From Amphiscolops sp. MND2022 (taxonomy: Eukaryota): a stretch of DNA of 64,000 nt. The stretch's first letter is position 1, and each line of letters opens with the position of its first letter. The stretch covers positions 59,956,001-60,020,000 of the forward strand of contig OZ076409.1 of NCBI GenBank assembly GCA_964187785.1, in the 5' to 3' direction. The notes under the pieces are model-generated. The model ran no database searches. It saw nothing but the letters and a program-made list of their open reading frames with translations, and had not been told where the DNA came from. The position numbers were made by a program, and so were the translations under genes. This document shows, in pieces, positions 2,139-48,835 of the stretch.

Positions 2139-2328
2139 CTGAAAACATGCAAAATGTTGAAAGAAACATGTAAAAACATACAAACAACATTCTAAAAGCG
2201 TGACATTGACAAAAGTGAAACGAAAAAGGGCAATTTTCTTATACAGAATGTAAAAAAGGAGCTTGCTCAAACAAACTGAACATATCGTTCGAATTGCGCT
2301 CTCCACACAGGTTTAGAACCTAACAATC

Positions 2329-3057
2329 TGTAACGATAAGCGCTGGCGCTTGAACCGCAACGTAGAGTGGAGGAACTAGAACAGCGAATATAATCTGGGA
2401 CCTAGATCTCCGCGGCCCTAGCTCATTTTCCCTCCGAAGGAGCCAGTCCCAAGGTGGGGGAACCGTCTTGTAGGACGCTCTCTGGCCTGGTCCTAGTCTG
2501 TAACTGCTAAAAGTAACAGGCATCTTGCAAGACTCAAGACCACTGCTCAACTAGCCTTTAAAAATTGGGCTGAAAATCGATGAAGGTTGAACCGTAATAT
2601 TGGAGAATCTGATAAAATCGCCAAATTGAATAAACAGATGTTAAACAACAGCTCTCGAGCATATTAATCTACCACATCGAAAAATACAACAAGAAATCAA
2701 GAGTTCAGAGTCATTTGATGAGAATTGACCTCAGGTTCCCAGCGCTAGCGCTAGTTGCCACACAGGATACCGCAGGGATACTCAGGCGAACATCTGGAAC
2801 ACTGGTTTCCTTTACTGTAGTAATGGATATCTCCTAGAGATTGACACAATACCGTGTTCTGTATGCGTTGGGGACGTCTTCGTAGTCGTCTCCGGTGCTT
2901 GTTCGTCGCGAGCGGCGATTTCTGCTTTTTGGGGTGCTTTTTCTGGCAGGTACTTCGTCTTGAGCATGTTTGAGTACCACGTCAAATTGGAACGAATTTT
3001 TGACAAAATTTTCTAAACATGTCGGTTGATGTTGCTGTACCAGAGCTTGCCGTTACA
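2329..3057 (-). repeat. 3' LTR (729 bp) of giant Gypsy element
   Basis: TGTAACG...CGTTACA; differs from 20450-21179 by 3 substitutions and one T indel (by eye). Confidence 0.97.
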
Positions 3058-3066
3058 TCACTCCCC
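3058..3066 (-). promoter_or_regulatory. Polypurine tract (GGGGAGTGA) abutting the 3' LTR
   Basis: Purine-rich run immediately 5' of TGTAAC on the minus strand. Confidence 0.75.
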
Positions 3067-3861
3067 AGGCTCCTGGCTTGTCGTCCCTGGCAAGCGGCGT
3101 CTGGATCGTCTGGGAACTGCATCACAGTGACTGCTGGGAACCATCATCCACACATCGGGGAACAAGGACGAGTCCTTGTTTTTCGGCAACAATTTTGGTC
3201 GACTTTGCAGTTTTTTTACGAGAGAAAAAAAAAGAACTTACTGCCTAGCTATTCGTACAAAACATGAACGAGGTTTTAGCACCAGCTCGAGAGCTACAGT
3301 TTTCAGCCGGTTAAAATTCGTTTGGGCAGTCAACTTGTGTAAAAACCTTTTTGCGACCAAAGTCAGCTAAAATTTCTTTTCCTTACCATTTGAGACTACA
3401 AATCTTCAGTTCATTTCAGGCGATTAAAAACTTTTTTAGAGCTTGGGGGCTCTTACGGTGAACAACCAGATTGATGAAGAACACTAGACTAGAAAGAAAC
3501 GCAATCAAGAGGGATAAGACTTCTTTTGATTGTGACAACTCAAAAACACCGCGAACGGTGCGCAACAAAAATGATAGTTTTTTTGAACAATAGTTTTCTT
3601 TTCTTTCTGCTTGGTCACTCAAGCCACTGGGGCAGGCGTACTCTATTGGCCGTACACCCAGTGCAACACTAATGGTACACTAATTATATAACCATAACTA
3701 AGAACAAAAATTGCACTTTGTACTGTAGCACCGTTCTGGATGAGAAGTTTTGAGGCACTGTTTGTTGGCAGTTTATGAGGGTATAGGGAGCGCGAACGCT
3801 CCCATTAGCGGCTGGGTTTATTGAGCTGAACTGCGTCGGGTCCGCTCTTTAGTGGCATCAT

Positions 3862-6800
3862 CTAGGTTCCGTTCTGGGTTATCAGTCGACACTGACGCTC
3901 GACGTCGGGGAGAAACTTCTGTGGTAACTGTTTCAGAGTCCGACGGACTTTCGGGAGCGACAACTCGGCAATAGGCTGCACTAGTGCTGCATTGGGAGTC
4001 AATTCGGCAGTGTGCTCTCCGGACTGCTGCTGCGAGGACTGAGGGCTCGTTCGCGACGAAGACGGGCCAACTGGGTCTGGCTCCAAGTTATGGGTTGGAA
4101 GGTTAATGGTGATCGGTTGAGAGATGGGCCGATCCAAAGACATCGCCATCGTTGGTGCGAGCATGGTAGGCGCGAACGCCTGTTGTCTCGCTATCTCTGC
4201 TATACCTTCTACCGCTAGTGCTACACGGCGTGAGATCCATCCAGATTGGCTCCAGAGCTCGCAAGCTCTCTTCCATTTAGGGAAGCTTGCAATCTCCAAC
4301 TCCAGACAGTACTCTTCCCATCTCGCTCGTTCTGTTGAGCCCAACACGGAATTTATCTCATCATGCTGGACGATGGACATATCTCCAGACATGGTCATCT
4401 TTCCCGTAGGCTTCCATGCCGACTTCCTGGGGAATGGGATAACGCGGGATTGGAGATTCCTCTGCCTGATCTGAGCAGCGCCTTCAATCCATCATGGGAT
4501 CTGGGCTGACTCCAAGTGTTGGATTTGGCGGTTGAACACCTCTGGGGAGCGTCCAACGGGTTTTGCCCTGGGCCAACCTAACGCCTCCTTCCAATAGCGG
4601 TTTGGGAAGGCGATGCATTTGAAGCAGTACAAAGGGTCCACAGGTGGACCAGCACTAGTGCTGGCGCGAATCGCCTTCCTCATGAACTCTTGACTCCAGG
4701 GGAACCTAAAGGGGACCCCTTCCAAACTGAGAGGTGCGGAATACCAGTTCACAGGTCCATGCTCTCGGGGTAGAGGACATGCTTTCCTGGTGCGCGCGCG
4801 CAGCAAGCCCATCAAGTTCTCCTCCAACTCTCTTTCGGATTTTATGGTCGTGTACCCATGCGGCACCTCACCACTCAGCACTGCATGTATTATCTTGGAT
4901 ACGTCAGTGAGGGCCGGCCCCGCAGGTAGGTACTAAAGGAGACCATGTGCACTTGGACGGCTGTTGCCAATGGTTTAGTTGGGTATCGGCACACGCCCAC
5001 TGCGCCAAAGATAGGGGCCAAGACAGGAGCCATTGCTGCCACAAAATCTTCTACTTCAGCCAGGGTGAGATCTGCAATCTGCTGCGGCATGGGGAATCCT
5101 GCCGTTTCCCGTGAGATCTGCTGGTCGGAGTTATGTAGTGGTTGGGATTGGTCTACGCCCACGAATAGGCCGGAGGCGAACACCAGGGTGGAGTATAGCC
5201 AGTGCTGGATTGACGCACGCCAGTTGGGCGGAATAGTCTTGCTGGTCTTTGGAAGTCATCAAGTGTCCCCAACGGGTCAGACTGCGTAGTTGTCCTTGTG
5301 CCAGGACCAAGTAGCTGTAGAACACGGTGAGGTCGCAGGCAATTACCATGTCGGCTAACAAGGCCAGTGGTCCGGCTACAAACTTGGTTGGGCCCATCGC
5401 TAGCGCGAGCGCTAGTATTTCTCCGACGGTTGCCTCTCCAATTGTTTCTAACAGCTTGTCCGTTTGCGTAGAGGTCAGCGAGAACTCAGAAGTTAGTACC
5501 TCTAGGTTCCATCCTAGAACAAGACTGGTACAGAAGGCTTCCAATGGACAATTGAGCTCTCGAGCTACTTCTGCCAGAGTTCTGGTGGCAAACCTAGTCT
5601 GGTACCAATAAGCATAAGTTGTGGCTGCGGCGTCGACTTCTGCTTTCAGGTTTGTTGCTTCCATTGCTACGATACACCGCAGCCCTACAGGCAGCTTCAC
5701 GGGCTCGATTCCCGAGGCGAAGTGGATCTGAGGAATTGTTCTCTCGACGGTGCGCGCTGCAGGCCATGCACCAATTTGTTTTGTCAGGTCGGCTAATTCT
5801 GCGCGCACTGGGATTTCTTTATCTCTCTCGTTCGGTTACATTAGATTCTCGGGCAATGCGGTTGCCGTCAAGGTCAAAGGCCAGTCTGCCCATCCGCATT
5901 CCATAATCATAGAGGATAGCATCGTCAATGGTTAGCTGGGCGTTTCCCGAGCGTTCTATAGCCACAAGCGCTCTAGATACGGCGGCAAAGAAGGCTGGAT
6001 ACGATAAGGTATCTGGGCGCAGGTCCTCTCGGTCCACGCGCAAGTTCGGTGCACAGATGGCGAATTCGACTCTGCGCGCCTTGCACACCTCCAGCAGAAT
6101 GTAGACGAACTGCTGCAGACTTCGTGGCCAATACATGAATCCTGGTGGGGATACAAAGAGCGCGAGCGCTCCCAGACGACCCCGAAGGATCCCTGCGGCA
6201 CGTTCCATTGCACCGACCACCTCATTTACCAGGGCGGCAATGTCTCCAAGTCGTCGGACATTGGACATTATGGCGTCCAGGTCATGCAGCAATCCTTCAC
6301 AAGCCATGTGATCCAGAAGATTGGCAAAGATCACTCGCTGTGGGGGTGGTTCCTTTTGTGATCCTCTTAAGTTTGGATCGTATATGGCTCCAACCATCTC
6401 AGCGACCTCAGCGAAGCGAGACAGGGGCATAGTTAGCACCAGCACGTCAGGCATTAAATTGTCAATAGGGAGGTCACTTCGGCAAGTAGAATCAACTGCC
6501 ATGCAGTAGCGCGCACGCTGCAGAGCTGCTTTCAATAGGGGTTTCAAAGATCTCAGGTTGCGAGCGTAACGGGCGTTCGCCTCCCATGTCTCACCTTCTC
6601 GCAACACATACCGTGCGGGGAATTGCTCAGTGATATTGTGTTGCCGGGGCGCCATGTAATCGTTGGTTGTCATAGGCAGCTGCTCTCGAGCACGCTGTTC
6701 CCAAGCCTGCTCCGACATGTCTGCGTCACGGGGGGCGGAGCGAACGCGTGACTTACGCCGGTATCGTGGTCCGGTTGATCTCCTTTTGCTCCGTTTCAGT

Positions 6801-8070
6801 TGGAGGGGTCCTTTTCTTGATAGCGCATTGACTGGGGTAGAGATGCTCAGCCGCCATCCAAAAGCGTTTGCTATCATTGGTGACTACTGAGCCGGATACG
6901 TCGTCAGATGGAGGGAGAAAGGCTGGAGGATGGGCTTCCTCCACCGTCTCAGGTATCTCCAGGGACATATCTATTGGATTGGTACCCGAGGGCACAGAGC
7001 TCACTTCCGAGCCTGCATCCGGATCTCCATACTGTTCGATCGCGTCTGCTAAAGACATTTGAGGTGCGCTTCGGCCTAGATGACCTACCCGGTACGGGGG
7101 CCTAGGGATGACCACACTCTTCAGCTGGGGCCGAGGTACATCAGCGCGCTTGCCGGGAGGGGGACGACTAGTTGGGCTCTCGGTTACCGAGCCAGCTGGG
7201 GTAACTGAGAAGTTTCTTCAGTTAGCCGCTTTCTCCCCGCTTCTTCTCGTGTGCCAGAGGCAGCGCTTGCGCTGTTACTCGGTCCAGCGACAATTTCCAT
7301 ATCCATAGATGCCGTTTCGACTAGGGGAGCAGGAGGGTCACAGCCCGCGGGCTGAGCAGCAGCTTGCAGATACGTGGCTAATCCAGGGATTCTCTGCTCC
7401 ACGGCACGGACGAAATCGGTGGAGTTGGGATAGTTCGCCACTGCTTGCAAGGCCACAAGTACTGTTCGCTGGTACTCCTTCCCGTCAGCTCTGGGTTGGG
7501 TATGGGTGGTAACCGGGACCCCGAGGGCTCCCGATCAGAGACTGGTGCATTAGTAGTGGTTTGCAGTACCATGTGTGGCGCTCGATATGAGGTTCCAAAG
7601 GCAGGCGAACCGGAATAAGTTGGTACTGGATTTGGCGCTGGTGGGGGCAGTGCGACCATCTGAGGAGGAGGCATTGTTGCTACGCTGGCAGGCACCATAC
7701 ACAGTGAGGCTTCTTGCTCGAACCTCGTGCCCTGGCTGGGCCCGAGCATTGTGGTAGAACGTTCATCCAGGAACTGGTGCGTCAGATCGTGGCCATCCCA
7801 CGCATTGTTTTGGCAGGTTAGGGTGCGACGGTAACCGGCTACTTCCGTCACCAGAGACACGGATACGCCAGGCAGCGTCTGCATTGTGTCTAGTTGGGTG
7901 AGTAGGGCGGCCACGCCCGCTACCGCTAACGGTGAGAGGCCGTTCCTCAATCGCTCTTCTACGTATTGGACTTGATTAGTCCTCTGCGCTCGCGCAGGCA
8001 ATTCCTGAGTCCTATTGGCGTGAGGTCCCGTCGTGGAAATAGGTACCGTGTTGTTGGGGTAATAAGCCAT
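3862..8070 (-). pseudogene. Accessory ORF2 of giant element (~1,400 codons, disrupted): Pro/Ser/Thr-rich N-terminus, SGNH/GDSL-like domain, unknown helical C-terminal region
   Basis: Consecutive same-strand ORF pieces 7378-8070, 7184-7456, 6753-7115, 5819-6877, 5131-5808, 4890-5183, 4492-4881, 3862-4398 tile the region and join by frameshifts or an in-frame stop (4492). Confidence 0.8.
5954..6514 (-). CDS. Degenerate SGNH/GDSL hydrolase-like domain within ORF2
   Basis: Block order YCMAVDS (GDS-like), VLTMPLS (PG-like), VIFANLLDH (GxND-like), ALFVSPPG, EDLRP..SYPAFFAAV (DxxHP-like, His->Arg). Confidence 0.55.
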
Positions 8071-8082
8071 TATATCATAGGT

Positions 8083-8103
8083 CTAAAAAGGATTACCGTT
8101 AGG
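8083..8103 (-). promoter_or_regulatory. Putative branch point and splice acceptor upstream of ORF2
   Basis: Minus strand CCTAAC-ggtaatc-CTTTTTAG| 12 nt before the ORF2 ATG at 8070. Confidence 0.5.
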
Positions 8104-8361
8104 CTTACCAAGTGCATTGTGGGGAGAGCTTAAGGCTCATCACTCAGCAGCAATAGTACAAAGATGGTTCCATAGGGGAACCGCAACAAGTTTAAATTGT
8201 AGTTCAACTAACTAATTAGAACACAAAGATAGAAGTTATCTAACGCTACGTTACAATGTAATCATTTCATGGGATGGTTTAACACTTCCTCCCAGGTATA
8301 ACGATTATCGGGGTGGGTAAATTAAATAAAGGGGGGGGCAACAAAAAGAGTTTTGGGCGGG

Positions 8362-9720
8362 CTACTCCAGCCCAATGTTCAGGAAGGACACATACACGCG
8401 GTTATGCAGCACTACGTGAATGCCAGTGCCCTCCAGCAAATTCGTTAGGGTATGGTATAAGTTTACCAATAAGAGGGCGGGTCGCTCTGGATCCAGTATA
8501 GGTAGGTGGACCCTCGTGGATCCCTTCTCCATCAAACGCCGTATCAAGTGCGTCATACAACGTAGGTAGTCGTCTGCGAGCAGCGGCGCACGCTGGTTTG
8601 CTCTGATTATTAGCAAGTGAATACTCTGACTGGGGTTTGGGTTGATATCGGGAGGAATGGTGAGAATCTCCCCCACCTTAGGACGTAAGGAGAATACGTT
8701 CTCCTTACCGCATTCTCGTAGCACGTACCGTAGGGCAGCTGAGTTGGTCTCTAGGTCAGCGGGACACGCTAACACCATATCACCTTTTACTTGAAGAAAA
8801 TCAGTCACATCATATGAGAGGTGCTCTGTTGGGGCTGGATGCAGGATTCCCGGGTAGACAATCTCTCTCCCCGGCCCATTGTTGGCAGGCAAGCATACGC
8901 GGGGCGTACGCCCCTGGATTGCAGCCAGGTCTTGCCATACCGAGCGTGGCATCGCTCGGTTATCACTGCCCGCCCTAACCCATGTGTCTAGGGTGCTCAA
9001 AACGGCTTTCGGAGGAAGCGGAATCTCGAAAGTATGAGTCCACTCGTCCAGCAATCTAATGCGAGGATAATTGGGGAAACAAGTGATGATCAGCTCCAAC
9101 CACCACGCGAATTTCACTTTGCCACGATACCAGTCTATGATGTGGAAGCAAAGTATCAAGTCCGCGGTAGTGAGGGTCCTCAGACCTTCCAAGCAGGACA
9201 GCAGGTGCAATGGTTCCACTATTGCCTCCACTCGTGGAGCAGTGACCAACAACCACCAGTGCGGCGCTGGGCTGTATACTCCGCCCGGATCCACGTGAAT
9301 TCCGTATTTGTCACAGAGAAGATCAGCGGTGATGCATCGGACCATTTGCACAGGCTCCCGCTCGAAGTTGAAGGGTCCAAAAGCAATATTGCTGGGTACT
9401 GGGGGCATCACCGTTGCGAGGGTGAACTCTAACCCTTTCCCGTCGCTAGTCCACTCCTTGAATCGAGGACATGGGGCCTTCGCTACTCCAGGTAGTGATA
9501 ACTTCTCCAGGGTAGTATCCACGGGATGGTCTCCGTGTCGTTCCAGGGAGGAATAAGTCTTTTCAGCTCTCACCGTAAGGCGATGTACTAGATTTTCTCC
9601 CCGCTCTGGAGGGACTCCCCGGGCTCCAGTGGGAACCCTCCGGTTCTCATTGACGGCTAGCAAGCAAACACAGTCTCGCAGCCCACAGGTCCCGCACTTA
9701 TAGCGTGGCTGCCGTCTGCT
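8362..9720 (-). CDS. C-terminal extension of Pol: Cys cluster plus two tandem degenerate TARG1/OARD1-like macrodomains
   Basis: Frame continues RYQL[R]SRRQPRYKCGTCGLRDCVC-LLAVNEN after restoring 1 nt at ~9722; repeats at ~9046-9393 and ~8401-8823 align by eye to the TARG1 pattern. Confidence 0.65.
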   Translation of the reverse strand, partial: SRRQPRYKCGTCGLRDCVCLLAVNENRRVPTGARGVPPERGENLVHRLTVRAEKTYSSLERHGDHPVDTTLEKLSLPGVAKAPCPRFKEWTSDGKGLEFTLATVMPPVPSNIAFGPFNFEREPVQMVRCITADLLCDKYGIHVDPGGVYSPAPHWWLLVTAPRVEAIVEPLHLLSCLEGLRTLTTADLILCFHIIDWYRGKVKFAWWLELIITCFPNYPRIRLLDEWTHTFEIPLPPKAVLSTLDTWVRAGSDNRAMPRSVWQDLAAIQGRTPRVCLPANNGPGREIVYPGILHPAPTEHLSYDVTDFLQVKGDMVLACPADLETNSAALRYVLRECGKENVFSLRPKVGEILTIPPDINPNPSQSIHLLIIRANQRAPLLADDYLRCMTHLIRRLMEKGSTRVHLPILDPERPALLLVNLYHTLTNLLEGTGIHVVLHNRVYVSFLNIGLE

Positions 9721-12700
9721 TCCAGTTGATATCGGGAGACCTCGGAAGCCTCGGTCGGTATTGCTGTTTCCGACGGCATTGTTGTTGTAGTTTCTTTCTT
9801 CCTCGTTCTTGCCTTCGCTCTGACCAGCCTTTTTCGCGTTTTGGGTGGTCTCCCCCTCCCTCTTTTGAAAGAAGGAGCGGTCCCCGCTCCGGGCAATGTT
9901 GTGGGAAGAGTAGGGACATTGGACTGAGCGTCGTCATCCTCAGTGGCGGATTTCAGAGGAAGGGAAGGAGCGGCCGGCCAAATGGGATAGTTATTGAGGA
10001 AACTCGTCAGTGATGGATTTGTCAGTAGTGGGGCCGATGTTCCCAGTAAGGAGGGCTGTTTTTCGGGAGAGGATATTCGTGGTGACGGAGAGCGCGCGCG
10101 CTCATGGTCGGAGAATAGTTGAGGCAGATGATGGGCAGGTGATATTGATTGGTCTGAAGGGAGTTGGGGTTCGGGCTCCCTGCGATCAGCATCAACGGGA
10201 TCAGGAGGTACCGGTAGCATGATTTCGGACAACTCGTCGTCAGTGCCCGAAGTTGAGTAGTCGAATTGCTGGTAGTGCATGCGGGAACCTCCAGCACGTA
10301 ACTTTGTGCGCAGACGGGTATCCATCCAATGTTGCTTGCGCGAAGGCAAGGATACGTCAGATGCTTCTGAAAGTAGTTGTTCAGTTTTATATGAAGGCTG
10401 GGACTTATCGTCGTCAACTGCTTCAACAGAACGTTCAGGGTCAGGGTCCATGAGTACCACTATTTCGCCGCTGTCTGCTTGCGCGGTGGCGAGCTCAAGC
10501 TGCCCACTATTATGAGGTTTCAGGCGCTTAAAATGAACCTTTTGGCCTGTGTCCAATACGTAGACACGTCCTTCTTGAAAGACTTGTACTATTTTGTGCG
10601 GGCCACGCCAGGCGCGCATCAGTTTGGGAGAGCCTTTTTGCGGCACATAGCGGCAAAAAACCCAGACAAGCTCTCCCGGCTGGTAAGCTCGTGCTCGGAT
10701 AGCACGATCATATTTCAGTTTTTGGCGCGATTGGGCTTGGTGCGTGTTGCGCCGGACCAAGTCGTGAATTTCTTGTTGGCGAGCCAACACATGATCCACG
10801 TATGCTTCATGCGTATCGAAGGACTTGGCTGCAAATTCAGGGTATAAAAAGGTGAGGGGAATTGCTTTCTCAACACCCCTTGTTAACATATAGGGCGAGA
10901 AGCCTGTAGTGGCGTGCCTGGTGGAATTATAGGCATCGATTACTTCATCTAAGCACTGGTCCCAGTCGCGCATGCGACGTGAGCAAAAGACTCGCAACAA
11001 GGTTAAGAGGGTGCGGTTTTGCCGTTCCACCAAGCCTTGAGTTCGTGGATGTCCGGCAGTCGAGGTCACCTTAGTGACGTGAGCTGCCTTTAGAAACTCA
11101 TTAGAGACTTCAGCAGTAAGGTTGGGGGCATTGTCTGATTGCATGCGAGTGGGGGTGCCGTGGCGGGCAAACCATTTCTGCAGCAGCAATCGTGAGGTGG
11201 TCACTGCGTCATAGTCATGATGACTACAAGGGACTGCCTCTGCAAATTTAGAGAAATGGTCGATGATGACCAAAATGCCAGTGTTGTTGTTATCAGAGGG
11301 GCAGATTTTTAAGTGGTCATATTGGACCAGCTCGTTGAAGTAGCCACTCTGAATGTTTTTCAATTGGAATCGTACGTCACCAGGCTTGTCACGTATTTGT
11401 TGGCAGGTGAGGCATTGGCCGACGTATCGACCGACACTGCGCCGTATGCCGGGCCAAGTGTGGCGCTCTTGAATTCGAGCTACCACTTTTGAGATACCTT
11501 GGTGTCCCATTGCGTCGTGCGCGCGGAACAGAATCTCGTGCTGGTACAGTTGAGGCATTATGATCATGCACGGACGTTCGTGCATTGGGCGTTGGGTGGG
11601 GGAGTATTGCACGCAAAGGACATCATTCTTGTTTATGAAGAAGAGATCCTTTTTCTGGCGGAAGTAATTACGTGCGAACTCACGCACGTTCTCGGGAAAC
11701 ACATCGTTATCTAGGGATTCACACTGCACGAGCTTTTTCAGCGCTAGCACATGGACATCGCGGTTTTGGGCTAAAACCGAGTCCTTGATCCCATGCAGTG
11801 TAAGTGTGTGTTCATGGAGCTCGGTGTCGATGTCCTTGAGGGCCATGATCGACTCGCGCACGCCACCAGGAGAGTTCTGTAGCATGGCGTTACTCGTTCC
11901 CGTCACAGAATAGATGGTGCGCGAGGGGACATTTACTGCATGTGTTGGCAGCAGGTAATCCTCGCTGGCCTCAGTGGTGACGTCTATCCAGTCTTCAGGA
12001 TAGTCTGGATAGAAGTCCTCGTGCTTCTGTAGCACGGGTGGAGGCTGAGGCGGTAAAAGCGCGGCTAGCGCCTTCGCCTGTCGTTTTCGCTTGTTCGCTC
12101 GTTGCACACGGCGAAGCACACGGAGTGCCTGGTCAGGAGCCTTAGGCTCCAAGTTCTGCAGATGCGGTGGTAGGTCAGGATGATTTGGAATGATTCGACC
12201 TTGCAGGTCGAACCATGGGGCTATGGGGAGGTTGTCGAATTCCTCGGCCGAGAGGAAGTTCCAACGCTCTCCAGTAGCTGCCAGCTGCGCAAGCTGCTGT
12301 TCTCGGCATTGATAATCGTTGGTTCGTTTGCTCAAGCCATCAGCATTGCGGTGTTGCGTTCGTGGTCTGTGTTCCACGCGAAAGTGATACCTGTCCAGTG
12401 TCATAATCCAACGTCCAATCAATGCTTGGTCCGTGGAGTAGGTTTTCAACCAAGATAGGGCTTGGTTGTCGACTCTCAGGGTGAACTTTCGGGGAAAAAG
12501 GTAGCTGTGGTACTTGAGGATGAAGTAGTAGGCAGCAAACATCTCCAGCTTGGGTGCCCCATATTTGGCTTGGGTGGTGGTCAGTTTTTTGCTGCCGTAT
12601 ATGATCGGTGGTAGGCGTCGCTCTCCTGGAGCTCCTTGCCACTGGTGTAGGATACCGGAAATGGCAACGGCGCTGGCATCGGTGTCCAGCACAAACTCTC

Positions 12701-15700
12701 CTTCGGAATCAGGCTGCGCGAGCGCAGTCGCCTCGATCAATGCTGTCTTGATTTCGTTGAAGGCTTTTTGTTGGTCAGGACCCCATGCAAATGTGGCATT
12801 CAGTCCCGTAACGGCGTGGAGGGGCGCCACCAGCTTGGCATGCCACGGGATGAATTCACGATAATAATTAGCGAATCCCAGGAAACTTTGCATTTCAGTT
12901 TTGTTGCGTGGGATGTCCCAATCGCGCAGTTTGGCAACAGCTTTCGGGTCCGGTTTGACACCTTCTGCTGAGACCACGCGTCCCAGATATTTGATTTCTG
13001 GTTTCATGAAGTCGAATTTGGCTACGCGCATCTTGAAGCCAGCTTCGCGGAGGCATTCAAAAACCTCGCGCAAACGCGCCATGTGATCTTCCACAGTCTC
13101 AGTTGCTACAACTATGTCGTCGATGTATGCCATGACCATACTGCCTTTGCGATTGACTATTTTTTGCAGCGCTCGCGCTATTGCTCGCTGGAAGGTGGCT
13201 GATGCATTGCACAAGCCAAATGGCATTCTTCGCCATTCACAGAGTCCCAACTCACAGGCAAAGGCTGTTTTGTGGCGGTCCGCCTTTCGCAAGGGAATTT
13301 GCCAGAAAGCCCAGGCAAGATCTATGCTGGTGTAGATCTTTGCATTGCCCAGTCGCGCCAGGCTTTCATCGATACGGGGCAGGGGGTAGGCATCCTTAAT
13401 GGTTACTTCATCCAGCGGTCGGAAGTCACAGCAAAAGCGTAACTCCCCGCTTTTCTTTTTTACCATTACGATACCACTTGCCCATGGGGACAGTGAAGGT
13501 TGTATCATCCCTAAGGCCAATAAGCTCCGAACCTCCTGGTTGGCTCGTTCAGCCTTTTCGGGGGACATTCTCCGAGCACCTTCACGGTGCGGTACAGCCT
13601 CAGGCTCTACCTCTATGGTGTGTTTAGCAATGGTACAGCGGCCAATATCCGCCTTGCGTTTCATGAATAGGTCATCAAACTCGTTAAGAATGTTGTCTAA
13701 GGACTCGCAGGCGCTAGCGCCCCAGAGTTTCTTGACTTCTTGCAATTGAGAATCGGGCCCAGGGATCGGGGCCAATAGGTCGGGATCGGTGCGCTTGCGA
13801 ATCTCGCGCTCCGAAAGCCCCGCTTCACTTGGATCCGTAGAAGACAAAAACTCAAATTCAGATGAAGAAGTTAACTCAGAAGCAGTGGATAGATTCATTT
13901 CACTGTATACTTTATAAACAAAATTTGCTCGACTGTTGTCGGCTTCAGTTTTGTGGTCAGCTTCCACAGTAGCATCCAGCTTTTGGGGCACAGCCTGGTA
14001 TACTAGAGACACAGGCACTACCGTGCCTAGGTGGGCACCACATCGTACACGCTGCTGGTTGCTGGTGAGGTTTACCAGGCTCACATACAGTGTTCCTGTC
14101 TCACTGACAGTGGCCACGCTGTCCTCTAAAAAGATGGTATTTTGCAATGAGGGATCAGACAACGAGGCGTTAAGCGCAACGGTCTGGAAGATTAATGGTT
14201 CAAGCGCGTTGGTGACAAGTTTGGCCTTTGCCACTGTACGCTCGAAAGGCTGTACGACTAGGTCACTGTCCAGGGTAATGGGGGTAGTTAACGAAGCGTC
14301 ACCTACCTGGGTGTGTGCATGATGCCAGACGGGCTTCACCGGTGCTCGCACCACTATCTTCATGGAGGTTAGATCTACCAAGACTTGGTAGGAACGGAGG
14401 AAGTTTCGACCCAACAGAAAGTCCTCCACGCCCATTGCGTCATCTACCACGACGAAATTGGTTTCGAGTTCATACCCTCCCAACTGGAAGCGTATCTGCT
14501 CAGCCAACCCGAAAGTCTTTATTGTCTTCCCATTGGCAGCGTACAAATCAATTTGATAGGGTTTCAGGACCGCTCCGGTCCGTGCAGCTACCCGGTTGAA
14601 GGCGGAGAAGGTTAGTATGGATACTCCGGAACCAGTGTCCACCAGGCCTCGCAGTGGGGTAGGTGCCGCATGAGGCACCACAAAGGAGACAACGAGCGAC
14701 GCACGCTCATCTATTCGCGCTTCCCCGGTGGGTTCTTGGTGGTTGAGATTATAGCATTTCAGCTCTTGAGGTCCCAAGCATAAGCCGGGTGGGAATACAT
14801 CTACCACCACACAGGCCTCGAACTTCACGTCCACGCCGTCCATCGTTGCACAGACTGGTACTGGCGAGTACGTAGTCAGGATCTCCGACTCTCCAGGGAC
14901 GTGCCACTGTTTTGGGCGGGGCAATTCCATCCGGTTATAGAGGACAGATAGCTCAACCCAGAGTTTCGCCAAGGTTAACGTTGGTCTACGCACCTGCTCG
15001 GCTGCCAGCATAAGATGAATCGAGATCAACGTTCTCCCTTGTGGATCGAACGTTGTAGGCTCCAAGCACGTCTGAATCTGCTTTGCCCCACATGTAACTA
15101 TCAGTGGGGCGTGAAACGCTGGGTGCTCCGCTGGGTGTAGCATTAATACGCGATCATCTTCCAGGGGTACCGTGTGGGCGGCCACACCAGCGGATTCCAC
15201 TTCAGCCCATCGATTGTAGGCCAATTCATCATTAGGCCTCGGAGCTTGAGAATGCTCACTACAGGGGACATCCACATGGTCATAGACTCCACAGTGCGCA
15301 CACTGATGAATGCCTGGATAGCTCTCCAACACGCCATCAGTTACGTCTTCAGCAGTGACTTTCACGCCTTCTGGTTCAGGAGCTGCCACTGGTTTGCGAG
15401 CTTGATCGCGGGTGGGACAGTCCCGGGCAAAATGCCCAGCTTGACCGCAATTATAGCACGCGCCAACGGGTAGGCGTGCCGCAGGCTGCACTGCTGCTTG
15501 ATTGGGGGGAGCATTACTCGCAGGTGGGGGAGGCATTACTCCTTGTGGTAACACCATTTTGTTGGGGGGTAGTGGCGCGAAGGGATGAGGTCGAGACCTC
15601 ATTGCTAGTCTGGGGTCATAGGGTTGAGGGAATTGGTTAGGTTTTGGACGGTTGCGCTGCAATTGGCGGGTGGTGAAGCGGAGGGATTCCACAGTAGGTG

Positions 15701-15923
15701 GCTCGGTCAGGAAGACTTCCGAGGCATACACTATGGCCAGCTCCCGCCTCAGCGCTGGGTCTCGTACACCTTCCATGAAGCGCTGGAGGATTTCATAGCG
15801 CTTAGTGGTGATTGCCTCTTGTGGGAATCCTTGACTCCGAAGACCCTCTAGAGCGTCTAAGTACTGCATCCAGTCTTCTTTCTCTTGTTGAATGCGGCTC
15901 TGGAAAGCTTGTCGCACTTGCAT
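9657..15923 (-). CDS. pol: Largest open segment of gag-pol (2,088 aa): capsid C-terminus, zinc knuckle, PR, RT, RNase H, integrase
   Basis: Canonical Ty3/Gypsy motifs in the order PR-RT-RH-INT. Confidence 0.95.
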   Translation of the reverse strand: MQVRQAFQSRIQQEKEDWMQYLDALEGLRSQGFPQEAITTKRYEILQRFMEGVRDPALRRELAIVYASEVFLTEPPTVESLRFTTRQLQRNRPKPNQFPQPYDPRLAMRSRPHPFAPLPPNKMVLPQGVMPPPPASNAPPNQAAVQPAARLPVGACYNCGQAGHFARDCPTRDQARKPVAAPEPEGVKVTAEDVTDGVLESYPGIHQCAHCGVYDHVDVPCSEHSQAPRPNDELAYNRWAEVESAGVAAHTVPLEDDRVLMLHPAEHPAFHAPLIVTCGAKQIQTCLEPTTFDPQGRTLISIHLMLAAEQVRRPTLTLAKLWVELSVLYNRMELPRPKQWHVPGESEILTTYSPVPVCATMDGVDVKFEACVVVDVFPPGLCLGPQELKCYNLNHQEPTGEARIDERASLVVSFVVPHAAPTPLRGLVDTGSGVSILTFSAFNRVAARTGAVLKPYQIDLYAANGKTIKTFGLAEQIRFQLGGYELETNFVVVDDAMGVEDFLLGRNFLRSYQVLVDLTSMKIVVRAPVKPVWHHAHTQVGDASLTTPITLDSDLVVQPFERTVAKAKLVTNALEPLIFQTVALNASLSDPSLQNTIFLEDSVATVSETGTLYVSLVNLTSNQQRVRCGAHLGTVVPVSLVYQAVPQKLDATVEADHKTEADNSRANFVYKVYSEMNLSTASELTSSSEFEFLSSTDPSEAGLSEREIRKRTDPDLLAPIPGPDSQLQEVKKLWGASACESLDNILNEFDDLFMKRKADIGRCTIAKHTIEVEPEAVPHREGARRMSPEKAERANQEVRSLLALGMIQPSLSPWASGIVMVKKKSGELRFCCDFRPLDEVTIKDAYPLPRIDESLARLGNAKIYTSIDLAWAFWQIPLRKADRHKTAFACELGLCEWRRMPFGLCNASATFQRAIARALQKIVNRKGSMVMAYIDDIVVATETVEDHMARLREVFECLREAGFKMRVAKFDFMKPEIKYLGRVVSAEGVKPDPKAVAKLRDWDIPRNKTEMQSFLGFANYYREFIPWHAKLVAPLHAVTGLNATFAWGPDQQKAFNEIKTALIEATALAQPDSEGEFVLDTDASAVAISGILHQWQGAPGERRLPPIIYGSKKLTTTQAKYGAPKLEMFAAYYFILKYHSYLFPRKFTLRVDNQALSWLKTYSTDQALIGRWIMTLDRYHFRVEHRPRTQHRNADGLSKRTNDYQCREQQLAQLAATGERWNFLSAEEFDNLPIAPWFDLQGRIIPNHPDLPPHLQNLEPKAPDQALRVLRRVQRANKRKRQAKALAALLPPQPPPVLQKHEDFYPDYPEDWIDVTTEASEDYLLPTHAVNVPSRTIYSVTGTSNAMLQNSPGGVRESIMALKDIDTELHEHTLTLHGIKDSVLAQNRDVHVLALKKLVQCESLDNDVFPENVREFARNYFRQKKDLFFINKNDVLCVQYSPTQRPMHERPCMIIMPQLYQHEILFRAHDAMGHQGISKVVARIQERHTWPGIRRSVGRYVGQCLTCQQIRDKPGDVRFQLKNIQSGYFNELVQYDHLKICPSDNNNTGILVIIDHFSKFAEAVPCSHHDYDAVTTSRLLLQKWFARHGTPTRMQSDNAPNLTAEVSNEFLKAAHVTKVTSTAGHPRTQGLVERQNRTLLTLLRVFCSRRMRDWDQCLDEVIDAYNSTRHATTGFSPYMLTRGVEKAIPLTFLYPEFAAKSFDTHEAYVDHVLARQQEIHDLVRRNTHQAQSRQKLKYDRAIRARAYQPGELVWVFCRYVPQKGSPKLMRAWRGPHKIVQVFQEGRVYVLDTGQKVHFKRLKPHNSGQLELATAQADSGEIVVLMDPDPERSVEAVDDDKSQPSYKTEQLLSEASDVSLPSRKQHWMDTRLRTKLRAGGSRMHYQQFDYSTSGTDDELSEIMLPVPPDPVDADRREPEPQLPSDQSISPAHHLPQLFSDHERARSPSPRISSPEKQPSLLGTSAPLLTNPSLTSFLNNYPIWPAAPSLPLKSATEDDDAQSNVPTLPTTLPGAGTAPSFKRGRGRPPKTRKRLVRAKARTRKKETTTTMPSETAIPTEASEVSRYQLEADGSHAISAGPVGCETVFAC

Positions 15924-18900
15924 ACGGTTTCATCCAGCGCCAAAGCGGCTGGATAACAATTCGAACACTTTCTCGGGGGTGTCACGTTCGGATTCCGCTT
16001 TGTTAATGATGTAGTTGCGGGCTTCACCTTCAAGGTGACCGATGATGCTCCAAGCCTGGTCCTCGGCTGAGACCTTGGTTTGTGTTCTCTTCAGGTATCT
16101 CTGCATAATAAGGATCCACCCATCAATGGATCCGTCTTTGGACCCGCGATATACATTGGGCCTCGCCTGAGCCAAGTCTCTGCCGGCGAGTAAGGGCGCT
16201 AACTCTTTTGACATCGCCTTTGATATGGCGGCCGTGAATCTCAGCTGCTCGGGGGATATGGCTTCTCTTTCATCGGCCTTGGCCTCCCCCTCGCGCGTCC
16301 TGTCATGACTACCAAGAGTGGCTTGTATCGACAGGTCGGCGATTTCGTCCTTTTTACGAGTGCTGCTAGCACAGGGAGTGCCCGAGGGCAGTCCATGATC
16401 GGCTGACAAGTCTGCGGTCAAGTATAGGGAATCTGGTCCTGACATCGAAATGGGGGCAGTTGCAAACGTTGCTCCCTCGGTTTGAGAGCCTAGGGTTGCT
16501 TTGGTGTTAGATAGGTCGACTTCAATCGAGGAATCAAGATAGGTGGTCGACATCGGGTCCACGCCTTGATCTCGAGTGGTACTCTGGATTGCAGAAGGCA
16601 TCGATGATTCTGCTGAGTCGTGATGTCCCCTCATCTGCACTCGCGCAGGCTTGCGCTCTGCTTCAGGCGTGGCTATCACCAAATTTCCGGCTACTCCTTC
16701 ATCTTTCCGGGGCGCAGGCACTGCCGGCCTGGAAGTGCTAGGCTTTAGCGCGCTCGGCAGTTCCGATTTCACTACCTGGCTCGGGCACGTCGGCTCCGAG
16801 ATACGGACTGGACCTCCATTCCGCACGCCTCCACTTGCACTGGGCTGCCGCGGGAGTGACTTCTCACGCCTCAAGACATCAATGGCATTGAGTACCGTGT
16901 GCATCTGATTGTTTAAGTCGTTGATCTGCGTTTCCACGCGCAGATCGCGAGCCATCAACCTGTCATTCATCTCTCCTATCCGGTGACCCAATGTGTCCAC
17001 TCGAGCTATTTGCACATTCTGCGCGGTGCGCAATTGATCACTGACCTGCAGGCCTTCACGCATCGTCGTCTGCATCACTTTAATGTTCTCTACGATGGCA
17101 AGGTGTTGCTCATTGCATTCAGCACGAGTGCTGGCCAGACCTGCTAGGGCCCGTTGGGTTTCGGCTTGGGCATCCAATAGTGCTGCCTTGTATACTGAAG
17201 ACCGTTGCGATGAGGCCAATGAGCCTGTCATACTCCTGACACGGGATACCTCTTGACGTGGCTCGCCTACCTGTAGTATAGGTGGTCGCACCTTCTTGTG
17301 CTTCCCGTAGGCACAGACCCGGGTAGGTCCTCGAGTGGTCCCGAGTCCCCGCTGTCGCGCGTAACTCATGCCTCCCACATAAGTGAGGTCCTGCTCCATG
17401 CCAGTTTGTGAGCCAAGTTGTCTTTTTCCAGCCGGGGGTGCGCGCGAGCACCCTTCCTCTGCCGCCAGTTCATCGGTCATATATTCGAATTAGGCCAGCC
17501 CTCTTCCACTTCATTAGCTCTATCGCGGCAGGTTTCGTCGACCCACTGCTCAGTTCGACGCGAATTTGCAGAAACACTGGAGTTCTCTGAGGGAGGAACC
17601 ATAGCGGCCAATTCCTCCTTTCGCTGTTGTTCGATAGTGACTTCGTCAGACATGTCGTCTGAAAAACGCGAACCCTCTATCGTGACCCATGATTGTGAAC
17701 CAGTATGGGACACCGCCATCGGTTCAGTGGCCAACGCGTTTATCAATAGCGATCAAGATACCGCTCACGATTACTCGGAAGACTCAAATTGGGTCGACGA
17801 ACGCACCAGGGTCTTCAATTCGAAGCTGATCCCTTGGTCGTCCCGGTGAGCACTTAAGAATTTTGATGGTATTCAACGTTCTAGATTTTTCGAAACACGT
17901 TCTAGAGCTCGTAGGCTGTTCAAATTTGCACAGCGTTTTTCCACAAGCACACTGGGCTAGAAAATCAACTTGGTTTGGGGCAAAAAGTCTCCAGTCACCC
18001 ACAGGAAGGATTTCAAGGAACTTTTGGATTTTTCAAAAATCGCACGACAACTCTCCAAAGGCTCGGGTGTGCACGGGAAGCGCCGTATCCAGCCCAAAAT
18101 TGACCAGCAGATCTTAGGTACACGTAGGTTTACGAAAATGAACACAGTTTTGAGCTGCGCCCCTTCTACACAGTTTCACCTAGGTACAGACGTGCGGTAC
18201 CACTATGTACCGAAATACAATGTTTTTCACGTCTTTTTCAAGATTGCGGTGCACGGGAAAGAGCTAGCAAGCTCAAATTCTCTGCAACGACGTAGGAACT
18301 AGCACAAGTTACGATGGTGGGTTGCAATGTAGCCCCAATATAGCCCCACCCGTCGGCTAAGGTGCCCGGGTTACTTGGAAAAATTAAGAAAAAAACTGCC
18401 TTTTTGGACACCTTTTTGGGCTCCACGTTTTTTCTATTTTCTCGACAAGTATCAGACAGATCGGCACCAAACTTGGTAGTCTATGCCAGCAGGCACTCAC
18501 AATGCCACTAAAATGGTCGAATTGAAGCGCGAGCGCTTATTTGAGTTTTCGACTCAATATGTACGTTGTACACGAAAAAACACTGTTTTTGACTACTTTT
18601 TTCACAATTTGACCAAGAGGATCACCTCAGGAAGTGATACGGCTGGCAAAATGGGACTAACGTGTTGCCCCACTATCCGGAGCACTGGGATAAACCCTCA
18701 ATTGGTCGTGCCCGTTAGGTATAAGGCACTGACAGTCCTGTAGTTTTGGAATTTTTCGGCTTTTATGTGCTTTTCTGAAGTCGAAACGTCAGAGAGCTTT
18801 TCTCGACTTTGGTGAGCGATACGCTCGCCAAATTTTCGGCACTAACGTTAACTTTTGTGGTGGTTACGAAAATGCAACCACTTTTTGGCTAGGGTTCAGG

Positions 18901-20416
18901 AATCGATGACCCGACCCTAGCTCGGAGACAGTCCGGTTTTGTGGAAAATTGACCAAATTCAGTGCGTTTTTCCACTTTTCTCAGCACTGAACAGGAATTT
19001 TTGCACGCGGTTTTCACCACAATGCGTTGTTTGTATTATAAAAACAGAAAATAGGAGCGCGCGGGCTCCCCGGTCTCGAAAACGCTGAGTGCCCCAGAGG
19101 TTTTAATGATGCACTCTGGCGCTCCTGAAACTGGCCAAAAATCAAGGTTTTTCAACTTTTCTCAACGTTGAAAAGGAATTTTTGCATGCGGTTTTCACCA
19201 CAATGCGTCGTTTTTGCTGCTACAATCGAAAATGAGAGCGCTCGAGCCCGCTCTTTTCGAATTAGCTTTGCTCTGGGTGTTTTTGGTTAATGCACTTTCT
19301 CTACTCGGAAATGCCAAAAATCACAAGTTTTTCGCACTGTATCAGCCCCAGGCTGCCTGAGTCCGCTACAAAAGTTGCAATTAGTATCCTGAGGGTCAAC
19401 TACACTTGGGATAGTGCCGTACACTGTCATTTTACACTTCCACACTCGTGTCAGTCACATTTTGGGTGCCTTTTTGGCCAAATTTCCACTTTTTTCACAT
19501 TTTTCGGCATCAAATTGGCACTTTTATCACAATCAAAGGCTTCAACTTCGCCTTTCGTGCCTCGTGCCGGCTTTCTCGAGCCTGGAAGCTGCTTTTCAAA
19601 ACTTTCCACCACACTTTCCTGGCTTCTGTGAGCACTAGTGCTCGAAACCAAGAAAAACACCAAAAAAAACACAAAAATGAGGTTTTTTTCCCAAGTGCTA
19701 TCTTTTTCGCAGAAAAGCACTTCGTTGGGTGTCGTTACATTTATAGTAGAACGTCACTGACCTACACCATCGATTCTCCATCGAAAGAGGTGTATTTTCA
19801 AAATTTTCGCCAACCATACTCCATCTGAGCGACTCATCTGGTCCTAGGGGGTGCATCTTCACCACGTTATTTCTCCACTTCTAGACCAGATAGAAACACG
19901 CGGATGGAACCATTAGCACCGTCTGTCGTTGTACTTGCTGTCCACCAAAAACCATGCCTCTAGGACGTCTCCACGAGAAATGGGAATAGGAAGTAGGCAA
20001 CACAATATTTGTCCCCTCCTTCGCCTCGCTGGAGCATGGTCAACCATCCATCCGTTACCCTCTTGCATGGCATAAAATGGCTGAAAATAGCTCAAAAAAC
20101 CTGTTAGACACCCGTAGCCACGTGCTACGGTCCTCTACACCTGCAAAAAGGTACCCGCTGATGGGTACACAACACATCACACATAAAGAGCGATTTCCTT
20201 CTAAAATGCCCAAAAATACCATTTTCGCACCTGAAAGCACGCTTTCTTCGGCATTTTCTCTGGTTCAACGCCTCTCCCAGTTCCAGTAAGACGTAATACG
20301 ACTAAAAAGAGGTAAAACTCTGCTCTTCTCTCCTGTCCAGAGTCGAAAACGGGCTTGGCGCTGAACACCAGGGGGCCAGATCTTTTAAAAACCGCTAGGG
20401 AAAGCTTCCCAAGACG

Positions 20417-20434
20417 ATCCCTCTGTGGTCGCCA
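20417..20434 (-). promoter_or_regulatory. Primer-binding site TGGCGACCACAGAGGGAT (tRNA-Arg-like), 15 nt downstream of 5' LTR
   Basis: Starts with TGG (complement of tRNA CCA) and resembles the 3' end of tRNA-Arg(TCG); conserved at 48818-48835. Confidence 0.75.
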
Positions 20435-20449
20435 AAAAATGAGTTTCTT

Positions 20450-21179
20450 TGTAACGATAAGCGCTGGCGCTTGAACCGCAACGTAGAGTGGAGGAACTAG
20501 AACAGCGAATATAATCTGGGACCTAGATCTCCGCGGCCCTAGCTCATTTTCCCTCCGAAGGAGCCAGTCCCAAGATGGGGGAACCGTCTTGTAGGACGCT
20601 CTCTGGCCTGGTCCTAGTCTGTAACTGCTAAAAGTAACAGGCATCTTGCAAGACTCAAGACCACTGCTCAACTAGCCTTTAAAAATTGGGCTGAAAATCG
20701 ATGAAGGTTGAACCGTAATATTGGAGAATCTGATAAAATCGCCAAATTGAATAAACAGATGTTAAACAACAGCTCTCGAGCATATTAATCTACCACATCG
20801 AAAAATACAACAAGAAATCAAGAGTTCAGAGTCATTTGATGAGAATTGACCTCAGGTTCCCAGCGCTAGCGCTAGTTGCCACACAGGATACCGCAGGGAT
20901 ACTCAGGCGAACATCTGGAACACTGGTTTCCTTTACTGTAGTAATGGATATCTCCTAGAGATTGACACAATACCGTGTTCTGTATGCGTTGGGGACGTCT
21001 TCGTAGTCGTCTCCGGTGCTTGTTCGTCGCGAGCGGCGATTTCTGCTTTTTTGGGGTGCTTTTTCTGGCAGGTACTTCGTCTTGAGCATGTTTGAGTGCC
21101 ACGTCAAATTTGAACGAATTTTTGACAAAATTTTCTAAACATGTCGGTTGATGTTGCTGTACCAGAGCTTGCCGTTACA
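20450..21179 (-). repeat. 5' LTR (730 bp) of giant Gypsy element
   Basis: Near-identical to 2329-3057; followed on the minus strand by spacer and PBS. Confidence 0.97.
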
Positions 21180-21410
21180 ATCAACTTTCAAGCTACAGCT
21201 GAGCTACTTTGTGTATTTCGGCACTGTGTGACATTTTTGGTCAACTGACAATTCCAGTCTTCGGAAAACGTTTTTTGTAGCTAAAGGGTGTCTGTTCAAT
21301 GTTTTTCCAGCATTTGGAGAAGTAGCAATCAAGTTTATTCAAAAGACAGCTTTTCGACTTTTCCAGTCTCAAGCGGTGTTCCCTTTTTGTTCTGGTTTTC
21401 TGCTTAGTTC

Positions 21411-21471: not shown

Positions 21472-22017
21472 AACAGTCATGATGTAGAAGATATTCAACC
21501 AAGTCGGATTTTAGTAGTAAGTACGTTTCAGATGTATGAGCTGCATTAGGACAACAGCAGTGCCAGAAAACTAGAGAGAGCAAGTTACCAAAAGACATCG
21601 AATGGTAACGTTGGCCAAAAATTGTCGATTTGATGACTGATGCTTCCTACGAACTCCAATCCATTTTTTCACAGCGACTTTTCTCTTAGGGAATTCGCAG
21701 CGTCCAGGTTCGAAATCGCGCACATCAATGCTATGAGACAGCAAATGGAAAAAGGGCAAGAACAAGGTTCGATTTCTAGAAAAGTTTCTCTAAAAAACAG
21801 ACTCTAAAATCGTCTCTGCCAGGTTTAAAATTTCAAAGCTGTCGATCTGAAATGTTAATTATTGTTAATTATTGGAAGTGTGAGGGCCCGTGGATGAGTC
21901 CGGCCGTAACCCTATTCAGCAAATAATACAAGTTTGCGTCAAAAAAGTTGAAGGCTCCACTGATAATCTGAATGCTAAAACTTTCACATTTCTAAATGTG
22001 AAAATGTTTATACGCAC

Positions 22018-22230
22018 CAAACTCGGCCCGATTGAGAAGCTCAATTCTTTCGATAGCTGCGTGATCGACGTTGATGTACGCATATCCCTCTTCTTCGGGC
22101 TGTGCCACATAGCAGTTCTGCGTAGCCAGATCGTCGTGTCCCTCGAATGCCTTGTCAATCGAAGACCCGTCATGAGCTTCAGGAGAAGCCGAGTATCCAT
22201 TCACTGTCAGAGGCCCCGGTTTGGTCAGTG
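22018..22230 (-). CDS. Exon 4 of F-type-lectin-like gene; first half of domain 2
   Basis: gatcag|CA CTG ACC...GAG TTT G|gtgcgt; GYSASPEAHDGSSIDKAFEG...C...IERIELLNRAEF; 213 nt, phase 1-1, paralogous to exon 2. Confidence 0.8.
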
Positions 22231-24019: not shown

Positions 24020-24217
24020 GTGTTCCATCAATTTGAACTTCACAAAATCCCAAATGTGCGCTAGGGTTGATGAGTTGTACCATGTTGCCAACCAAGGGTC
24101 CATCTTGGCACTTGATTGTGACCCATTCACCTTCCTCTGAGGAATCAGGGGTACCACATACTTTGCAGTCGCCCCCCTTGACACAGACACTGGCCTGGAT
24201 TGTAGCCAGTTTGTCAG
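24020..24217 (-). CDS. Exon 3 of F-type-lectin-like gene; second half of domain 1
   Basis: ttttcag|CT GAC AAA...GGA ACA C|gttag; ...CKVCG...C...G..VQL...HLGFCEVQIDGT. Confidence 0.8.
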
Positions 24218-25152
24218 CTGAAAACATGCAAAAACATACATACAAAAAACTTGCAAAAAATGTACCAACAAATACTTTCCTTACAATGGGATGTATCAAA
24301 AGCAACGCTTTCTATCGTTTCAATCAGCAAACCAGTAAAAATAAAACTTTTTGATGGTTTTCAAAGAGCAATACATTGCACAACTAGCTTGTGACAATCT
24401 TTTAGATCTATCTACAGTGATTATCAAAAATGTGGAAAAAGTCTCCAAAAGATTCCTGTGACCACAGCCCTTTTTCATACAAAATAGATTAACATGCAGC
24501 AATAATTTTTAAGCTCAAGACCCTCATTTTAAATAATCCAACTCTCATTCTCTCTTCATTCTCATTTGATTAATCATCACCAGCTGCAGCAACACACTTG
24601 TTTTTCTGTCAATTTAAATTTTCAAGAATTTTTCTTGGCATTTTTGGCGAACAAAAAAATCGAAACGCAAAAGTTGCAGAGCTCAGCTCATAGTTTTAAG
24701 TATTGTCATAAAGATTTCAAAACTCGATGAGCTGTAGTAATTCCGAGTGTCAATCATGCATATTGGCAAGTTACGCAAATTCTCATTACGTAATCAAATC
24801 TTTATCTAATGTTCGTTCGTGGACGGTATAACATTTTGATTTGTGAATTTTTTTCAATTCAAGTGAAAATTGTCGATGGAGTACATTATTTATCTTTTGC
24901 AATAGTTCCGCGTCTTTCTATCTTTCAGTTGAGAAAACGCTTCAATGAAAAATCAGTTTCATCAGACTTTCATAAAAGCTGTCTTAGCGATTGAAACTAC
25001 CTACCAATTCGGGTTTTGATGTCTGAGTTGCTTAATAGCTAGGAAACTGAATTGCTGACCAATTCAAATTGATTTGCGTTTCGGAAGAAGTTGTTGACAG
25101 ATTTTGAAATTGAGAGCTCGAAAAATCTTACATTTTTTCTGGGTTTACTTAC

Positions 25153-25365
25153 CAAATTCATTACGATTGAGTAGTTCAATCCGATCAATAGCTGAGTGCT
25201 CGATGTCGATGTATGCAAATCCATTTTCTTCGGTTTTCGCAACGTAACAGTCTTCTCGTCCCAGTTTATCGTTTCCTTCGAAAGCCTTGTCAATTGATGA
25301 TTCTTCGTGTGCTTTCGGAGACGCTGAATATCCCACTATTTCGATGGCCGGTTTCTCCAATAGGG
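25153..25365 (-). CDS. Exon 2 of F-type-lectin-like gene; first half of domain 1
   Basis: ttttag|CC CTA TTG...GAA TTT G|gtaagt; SSIDKAFEG...DCYVA...IDRIELLNRNEF. Confidence 0.8.
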
Positions 25366-30749: not shown

Positions 30750-31357
30750 ATAGGACAACACAAAGTAGTGAATTCCAGAACGTGATAGCTTGGTTGGTAG
30801 CGCGAAAAGCTGCGGCATAATAGGTAACCTGATCAAGCTGCAGTTGGCGTCAGTTTTTGTTTGTTTTCATTCACTTTTGTCAGTTCATCTCTTGAATTTC
30901 TTGGCACGATCTTGCAAGATCTTGCAAATTCGTGGATTTCTTGATAAAAATCTTGGCAAGATTCTTACCAAGAAATTCAGGAATATCCAAGATTCTTATC
31001 AAGAGTTGCAAGAGTTTTTACACTGGGTTGTTTTTCGATAGTTTCTGTTGCTCGGTGACTTGGTCTCGAGACCACATTAGTTAGAAGCTTGCAAGGATGA
31101 AAAATGGAAGAAATCACCGCTTCAAATTGATTTCTGCTATAAATAAGATTTCCTGACCAACTTGGCCCAATTATTCGAGTCTGGGTCCATATCATTTTCA
31201 CCCAGTGTTTTTTATAACAAAAACTGGCGACTCTTACAGTAACAAAACATTTTACTAGGATTTAAAATTCCAATCTTAAAGGAAGACTAGAATTTATGTA
31301 GAAACTAACTTTTACGAATAAATAAAACATCGGAATTCCGATGTTTCACCTTTTCTA

Positions 31358-31453
31358 ACGCACTAACAGAATCTTGAATAGTACCTAGCATCTAGAGACA
31401 GGATTAATCCTGTCTCTAGATGGTAGGTACTATTCACAATTCTGTTAGTGCGT
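31358..31453. repeat. 96-bp loopless palindrome (copy A)
   Basis: Arms centred on GGATT|AATCC, a few mismatches. Confidence 0.9.
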
Positions 31454-48817: not shown

Positions 48818-48835
48818 TGGCGACCATAGAGGGAT
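48818..48835 (+). promoter_or_regulatory. Primer-binding site TGGCGACCATAGAGGGAT, 15 nt after LTR
   Basis: 17/18 identical to the PBS at 20417-20434. Confidence 0.75.

Follow-up and report, generated by a model that had tools for sequence, protein, structure and literature searches.

The window analysed here, i.e. a stretch of 64,000 nt from Amphiscolops sp. MND2022 (assembly GCA_964187785.1, contig OZ076409.1, positions 59,956,001 to 60,020,000 of the forward strand), harbours a giant Ty3/Gypsy long terminal repeat (LTR) retrotransposon, element 1, on the minus strand at 2329-21179 (18,851 bp, with an internal part of 17,392 bp) and, on the plus strand at 48052-54410, a diverged and internally rearranged relative without pol, element 2. 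The insertions show a net duplication of three host bases, a genuine observation and an uncommon one among Gypsy elements.

Comparison of the LTRs placed the 3' LTR of element 1 (729 bp) at 2329-3057 and its 5' LTR (730 bp) at 20450-21179, both on the minus strand and both of the form TG...CA. The junctions are those given in the preliminary description, i.e. ACAATC/TGTAAC at 2328/2329 and GTTACA/ATCAAC at 21179/21180, and only the host triplet ATC (GAT when read in the direction of the element) is duplicated, lying on the plus strand at 2326-2328 outside the 3' LTR and at 21180-21182 outside the 5' LTR. The LTR pair is 99.5 % identical (three substitutions, one 1-bp indel), and the insertion is therefore young. 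At the inner edges, a polypurine-tract-like stretch (3058-3072, minus strand; its role is suggested by its position) abuts the 3' LTR and is followed by TGTAAC, and the TTACA end of the 5' LTR is followed by a 15-nt spacer (20435-20449, minus strand) and a primer-binding-site-like sequence starting with TGG (20417-20434, minus strand), which is presumably tRNA-Arg-like. Since these inner edges define them, the TG...CA ends of element 1 are set independently of the flanks. Both LTR ends start with TGTAACG, each on its own strand, and the terminal inverted repeat contains the first T. The non-coding leader (17700-20430, minus strand) is very long at about 2.7 kb, contains an internal repeat spaced by 181 bp (18966-19261) and is about 73 % conserved in element 2.

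The same anomaly had been described for element 2, and is found there, with the junctions reading ATT/TGTAAT...GTTACA/ATT and the plus-strand host triplets ATT at 48049-48051 on the left and 54411-54413 on the right. Along the plus strand, element 2 consists of a 5' LTR (48052-48802; the LTRs of both elements measure 729-751 bp), a spacer and primer site (48803-48835, of which 48803-48817 is the spacer, 15 nt long as in element 1), a leader homologous to that of element 1 (to about 51200), a remnant of the N-terminal part of the polyprotein (52685-53464) and an LTR end of 52 bp (54359-54410). It is not bounded by a clean LTR pair, as its final 52 bp alone match the 5' LTR (88 %). Two polypurine-tract-like stretches lie inside it on the plus strand (52696-52720 and 53845-53870), each followed by TG, and the segment 53865-54358 may derive from another LTR, which would have taken the place of most of the 3' LTR.

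Element 2 is itself inserted into the integrase zinc finger of an unrelated Gypsy element on the plus strand (45297-56266), which serves as a 5-bp control, with LTRs of 189 bp that are 92 % identical and a clean 5-bp duplication, GTCTG. Two unrelated LTR elements with 5-bp duplications had been reported for this window; this is one of them, and the second was not found by repeat and LTR-pair scans.

The interrupted zinc finger provides a measure of the duplication that is read from the host sequence. Of 119 relatives of the control integrase that were examined, 45 lacked one motif and 74 held both, and among the latter the spacing from the second His to the Pro is 16 residues in all but one (73/74). 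When duplication lengths of 0-7 were tried across the insertion of element 2, a spacing of 16 codons was obtained with a length of 3 alone. Together with the TG...CA ends, the spacing in the relatives therefore shows that this insertion duplicated exactly three host bases and lost none. It also shows that both ends of element 2 derive from a single site, even though the 3' LTR is cut down to 52 bp. Two unlinked positions of the window match over three bases by chance with a probability of 0.018, which for two of two insertions comes to 3.3e-4.

Longer footprints are obtained where LTR bases are yielded to the flank, i.e. the insertion of element 1 can be read as 5 or 6 bp if two or three LTR bases are given up. 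The family might accordingly be variable or mostly make duplications of 4-5 bp, with the window sites being short outliers or having been trimmed at or after insertion, for example from 5 bp with loss of TG at element 1. Mixed lengths are known, since Rous sarcoma virus produces both 5 and 6 bp (PMC9410886) and a 4-bp duplication has been recorded for one Troyka insertion (PMC12440569), but two outliers out of two with the same net length are improbable and 5 bp does not fit the insertion of element 2, which does not allow such a flank-inclusive reading. We therefore regard this explanation as unlikely. The reading we favour, with a probability of roughly 0.68, is that of a Gypsy lineage in which integration truly proceeds with a 3-bp stagger, which likely arose independently of that of the Troyka elements.

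Several observations count against a true 3-bp stagger. Both junctions are available for only two insertions, and the 3' end of one of them, element 2, is rearranged. The base following the triplet (position +4) is a T at both (probability 0.08, with T making up 29 % of bases), and at element 1 the flank even continues with TGT, i.e. the same bases that start the LTR. As had been cautioned, both sites can thus be read as 4 bp (GATT and ATTT) if the first T of the LTR is assigned to the flank, and the two sites are accounted for equally well by a symmetric 3-bp stagger and by a 4-bp stagger whose left end lacks one base, the expected empty site being identical. The only read across a U3 junction from another copy gives a Val codon, which is uninformative. 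Comparison of the target symmetry favours a length of 3 weakly over 4 (ln ratio 1.0-2.6) and over 5 (2.0-3.7), and lengths of 2 and 6 score similarly. Finally, the 1-bp difference between the LTRs of element 1 lies in a T run, and homopolymer indels therefore do occur here.

Further evidence on position +4 comes from other copies of the family, for which gene calls reading out of the LTR were used, as a frame of 65 codons exits at the U5 end. Thirteen such proteins were found, to which two cluster members were added; 14 of them reach the end, and P0368 was dropped, as it is without the LTR end. In all 14, the LTR sequence stops precisely with the codon whose last bases are the terminal CA, and 13 different flanks follow. 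In nine of the 12 proteins of the element 1 type, the second flank codon cannot begin with T, which rules out an obligatory T, or a T microhomology, at +4. Stop codons, all of which begin with T, are not sampled in such reads, and this introduces a mild bias against T. P0367 and P0370 share one flank and differ at +4. An apparent preference for A or T at the centre of the triplet (12/13) was rejected, since codons 4-6 give an equal count. The T matches at +4 of the two insertions are most plausibly coincidental, and such a match is cheap, the 5-bp control likewise extending by a T. The caveat of a T missing from the left junction is thus weakened rather than removed.

In that form, the caveat amounts to a 4-bp stagger with asymmetric ends, with U3 joined one base short (GTAA...), for instance because plus-strand priming left an unprocessed end, and with a T as the fourth duplicated base at both sites by chance. 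Its likelihood equals that of the 3-bp stagger at the two sites, ends other than TG/CA occur in Drosophila errantiviruses (PMC5408687), and the 15-nt U5 spacer shows that end formation is unusual in this lineage. However, it requires joining of a C-3' end on one side and a CA-3' end on the opposite one, the T is part of the terminal inverted repeat, and the target symmetry weakly disfavours a length of 4. Such integrases as a rule join CA-3' ends on both sides (PMC9410886 and PMC5408687), and the symmetric 3-bp stagger is preferred for reasons of parsimony, given this rule and the T in the terminal inverted repeat; an asymmetric 4-bp stagger is, in our estimate, improbable. The U3 side distinguishes between the two, and sequencing of empty alleles could not separate them because both predict an identical empty site.

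Alternatively, the duplication might be an ordinary one of 4 bp next to an intact TG, with the assembly having wrongly lost one T from a T run at each of the left junctions. Both of these junctions do lie in short T runs, and element 1 carries the homopolymer indel between its LTRs as well as two frameshifts. On the other hand, this would require two independent errors in like places in addition to a T at +4 twice, and 42 of the 120 relatives listed have uninterrupted open reading frames (ORFs) of 2,996-3,114 aa, a sign that the assemblies are accurate, although these are not established to be of the same kind as that of the window. Such an error is the least probable of the explanations considered.

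The coding content of element 1 agrees with its assignment to Ty3/Gypsy. According to Pfam, the gag-pol region (8365-17680, minus strand) encodes, in Gypsy order, CCHC, protease, reverse transcriptase (RT), RNase H, H2C2 and integrase core domains, the integrase being of the H2C2-core-GPY/F type. The region is disrupted by one stop (15930-15932) and by frameshifts near 17480 and 9700; uninterrupted relatives encode a single polyprotein of about 3,000-3,200 aa. Among 78 relatives, the RT motif YIDD of element 1 is found in 67 (11 unmatched), its zinc finger CX2CX4HX4C in all 55 for which a finger was matched, and the GPH at its GPY/F site in 64, with GPF in three and 11 unmatched. The nearest solved structure to the integrase is that of Ty3 (7q5b), with the alignment extending through the GPY/F region (E 2e-28). 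The target-contacting loop reads D-N-A-[TP]-N in 63 of the 78 relatives versus D-Q-G-A-A in foamy virus, which may serve as a lead only.

At the C-terminus of the polyprotein (8398-8835, minus strand), structure modelling predicts a TARG1/DarG-like macrodomain (Foldseek E 4e-9 to TARG1; VIA Z 16.6, root-mean-square deviation 2.4, 138 aligned), which is conserved in relatives down to about 20 % identity. In the literature, a search on this point listed only a fish endogenous retrovirus review. The region of about 4.2 kb after pol (3862-8082, minus strand) contains sense-strand accessory ORFs of 146-354 aa, for which no Pfam match was obtained and among which no envelope gene was recognised. The 354-aa ORF (5819-6883) looks SGNH-esterase-like by eye, and PF13472 is found in the relative P0088; the ORF itself had no Atlas match, and its model is of low confidence (predicted local distance difference test score 40).

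Among the matches listed, the closest relatives of element 1 are proteins encoded on long contigs in ENA, and the clusters to which they belong have 448-2,541 members; more distant ones, with about 50-60 % RT identity, occur in other metagenome assemblies. In a quick tree, built without references for the named Gypsy clades, the relatives form a clade of their own of 23 rows (SH-aLRT, i.e. Shimodaira-Hasegawa-like approximate likelihood ratio test, 99). This clade stands apart from the nearest named proteins (37-40 % identity), i.e. Gypsy polyproteins from fish, frogs and a pseudoscorpion (an arachnid) that are unclassified. The named Ty3/Gypsy clades include Osvaldo, Gmr1, 412/mdg1 and Mag. 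Of the loci with a related pol that were taken (80 from metagenomes and one from a genome), nine longer ones, including the 21-kb L018, were compared with themselves, and no LTR pair was found at the element ends. The LTR-end pattern had no match in metagenome contigs; its six matches in viral contigs were discarded as chance, with no LTR similarity past the pattern, and no protein relatives of element 1 were found in viral contigs. L018, from another metagenome assembly, contains a decayed and similarly giant relative with accessory ORFs after pol (5175-18800). A pol fragment of the clade also occurs on a 1.9-kb contig of a metagenome-assembled genome assigned to Bacteroidota (L087, 1-1947), which is likely misbinned animal DNA.

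The starting premise, that LTR elements normally make target-site duplications of 4-6 bp, proved incomplete, since the Troyka elements (Kuafuorterviruses) make 3 bp (PMC12440569); the anomaly nevertheless stands, as element 1 is not a Troyka. Kojima 2025 (PMC12440569) puts the duplications of all LTR elements outside Troyka at 4-6 bp and uses a 3-bp duplication together with CG ends as a mark for classification. Like Troyka, element 1 is an animal LTR retrotransposon with the domain order RP-RT-RH-IN and a 3-bp duplication (PMC12440569; Gong and Han 2024, PMC11673190). In contrast, the ends of Troyka are 5'-CG...CG-3' (CGCCA/TGGCG), whereas every LTR end seen here is TGTAA...TTACA; Troyka LTRs measure 100-400 bp and the internal part 1.6-7.7 kb, compared with 729-730 bp and 17.4 kb in element 1; the Troyka zinc finger is CX2CX8-10HX4C instead of CX2CX4HX4C; its integrase lacks GPY/F, whereas the GPH motif here aligns with that of Ty3; and its RT motif is IADD, VADD or LADD rather than YIDD. 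Membership of Troyka is thus rejected on five features (ends, size, zinc finger, GPY/F and RT motif), the 3-bp duplication alone being shared, at both insertions.

With Ty3/Gypsy (Metaviridae), on the other hand, element 1 shares the domain order and motifs, TG...CA LTRs, a primer site, a polypurine tract and an H2C2-DDE-GPY/F integrase. It differs in its 3-bp duplication from the usual 4-6 bp, which is a usual trait rather than part of the taxonomic definition, and also in its polyprotein of about 3,100 aa with the predicted macrodomain, its 15-nt spacer and its clade of its own. Given these Gypsy features and the five features that differ from Troyka, we class it as a Gypsy element that is Troyka-like in its stagger. 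By description, it also resembles Burro, a planarian Gypsy element that is likewise giant and has a very long polyprotein with accessory domains; Burro exceeds 30 kb and has an ORF of 4,873 aa and other accessory domains (PMC6431247). In the literature, searched at the level of titles and the beginnings of abstracts and with Repbase and the Troyka supplement outside the search, we found no 3-bp TG...CA Gypsy element and 3 bp for Troyka alone; the accessible part of PMC12471100 deals with ordinary 4-bp cases only.

Troyka demonstrates that an LTR integrase can work with a stagger of 3 bp (PMC12440569). We consider it on the whole probable, with somewhat less confidence than for the lineage as such, that this stagger evolved independently of Troyka in a clade of giant TG...CA Gypsy elements that is high in copy number and occurs in at least two assemblies, and we infer that the trait is common to the whole clade. 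Both cDNA ends would be processed to CA-OH, judging from retroviral integrase chemistry (PMC9410886), which at U5 would remove up to 15 nt. The two CA-3' ends would then probably be joined by concerted strand transfer at positions only 3 bp apart; this shorter stagger would need a strong bend in the target, sharper than in the retroviral cases of 4-6 bp, and host repair of the resulting 3-nt gaps would copy the triplet and thereby generate the duplication.

The usual spacer between the LTR end and the primer site is about 2 nt long; that of 15 nt in both elements implies an unusual trimming of the U5 end. The spacer region folds no better than shuffled sequences (z 0.18 and 0.63) and has no Rfam match.

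Elsewhere in the window, a 1,250-bp tandem duplication (30750-33252, 95 % identical) contains two near-perfect palindromes of 75 and 96 bp and is not an LTR pair. Direct repeats of about 400 bp (40702-41105 and 42538-42924, 74 % identical) flank a decayed stretch of 1.4 kb, and no TG...CA ends with a duplication were found for them. A perfectly centred palindrome of 148 bp (57441-57588, 95 %) resembles a miniature inverted-repeat transposable element. Two pairs of segments with 74 % identity lie on either side of element 1 (1952-2154 with 24031-24233, and 22016-22198 with 25151-25333) and may represent exons of a host gene on the minus strand that was duplicated in tandem, in which case element 1 would lie between the copies or inside one of them. 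An intron-split fragment of a host gene resembling rhodopsin-type G-protein-coupled receptors is located at 58087-60670 on the plus strand (Pfam 7tm_1, E 9e-4, under the curated cut-off), which agrees with an animal host.

The length of the duplication is a direct read-out of intasome geometry. If the 3-bp stagger is true, a Gypsy element with canonical ends would uncouple stagger length from end sequence, and would offer a natural comparison with Ty3 and foamy virus for what sets the stagger length. It would also mean that the shortest stagger on record for LTR integrases has arisen a second time, here combined with a 15-nt U5 extension that needs trimming. LTR finders commonly demand at least four duplicated bases by default, and with such a setting they would miss, or assign wrong boundaries to, a family whose clusters each comprise hundreds to thousands of coding fragments.

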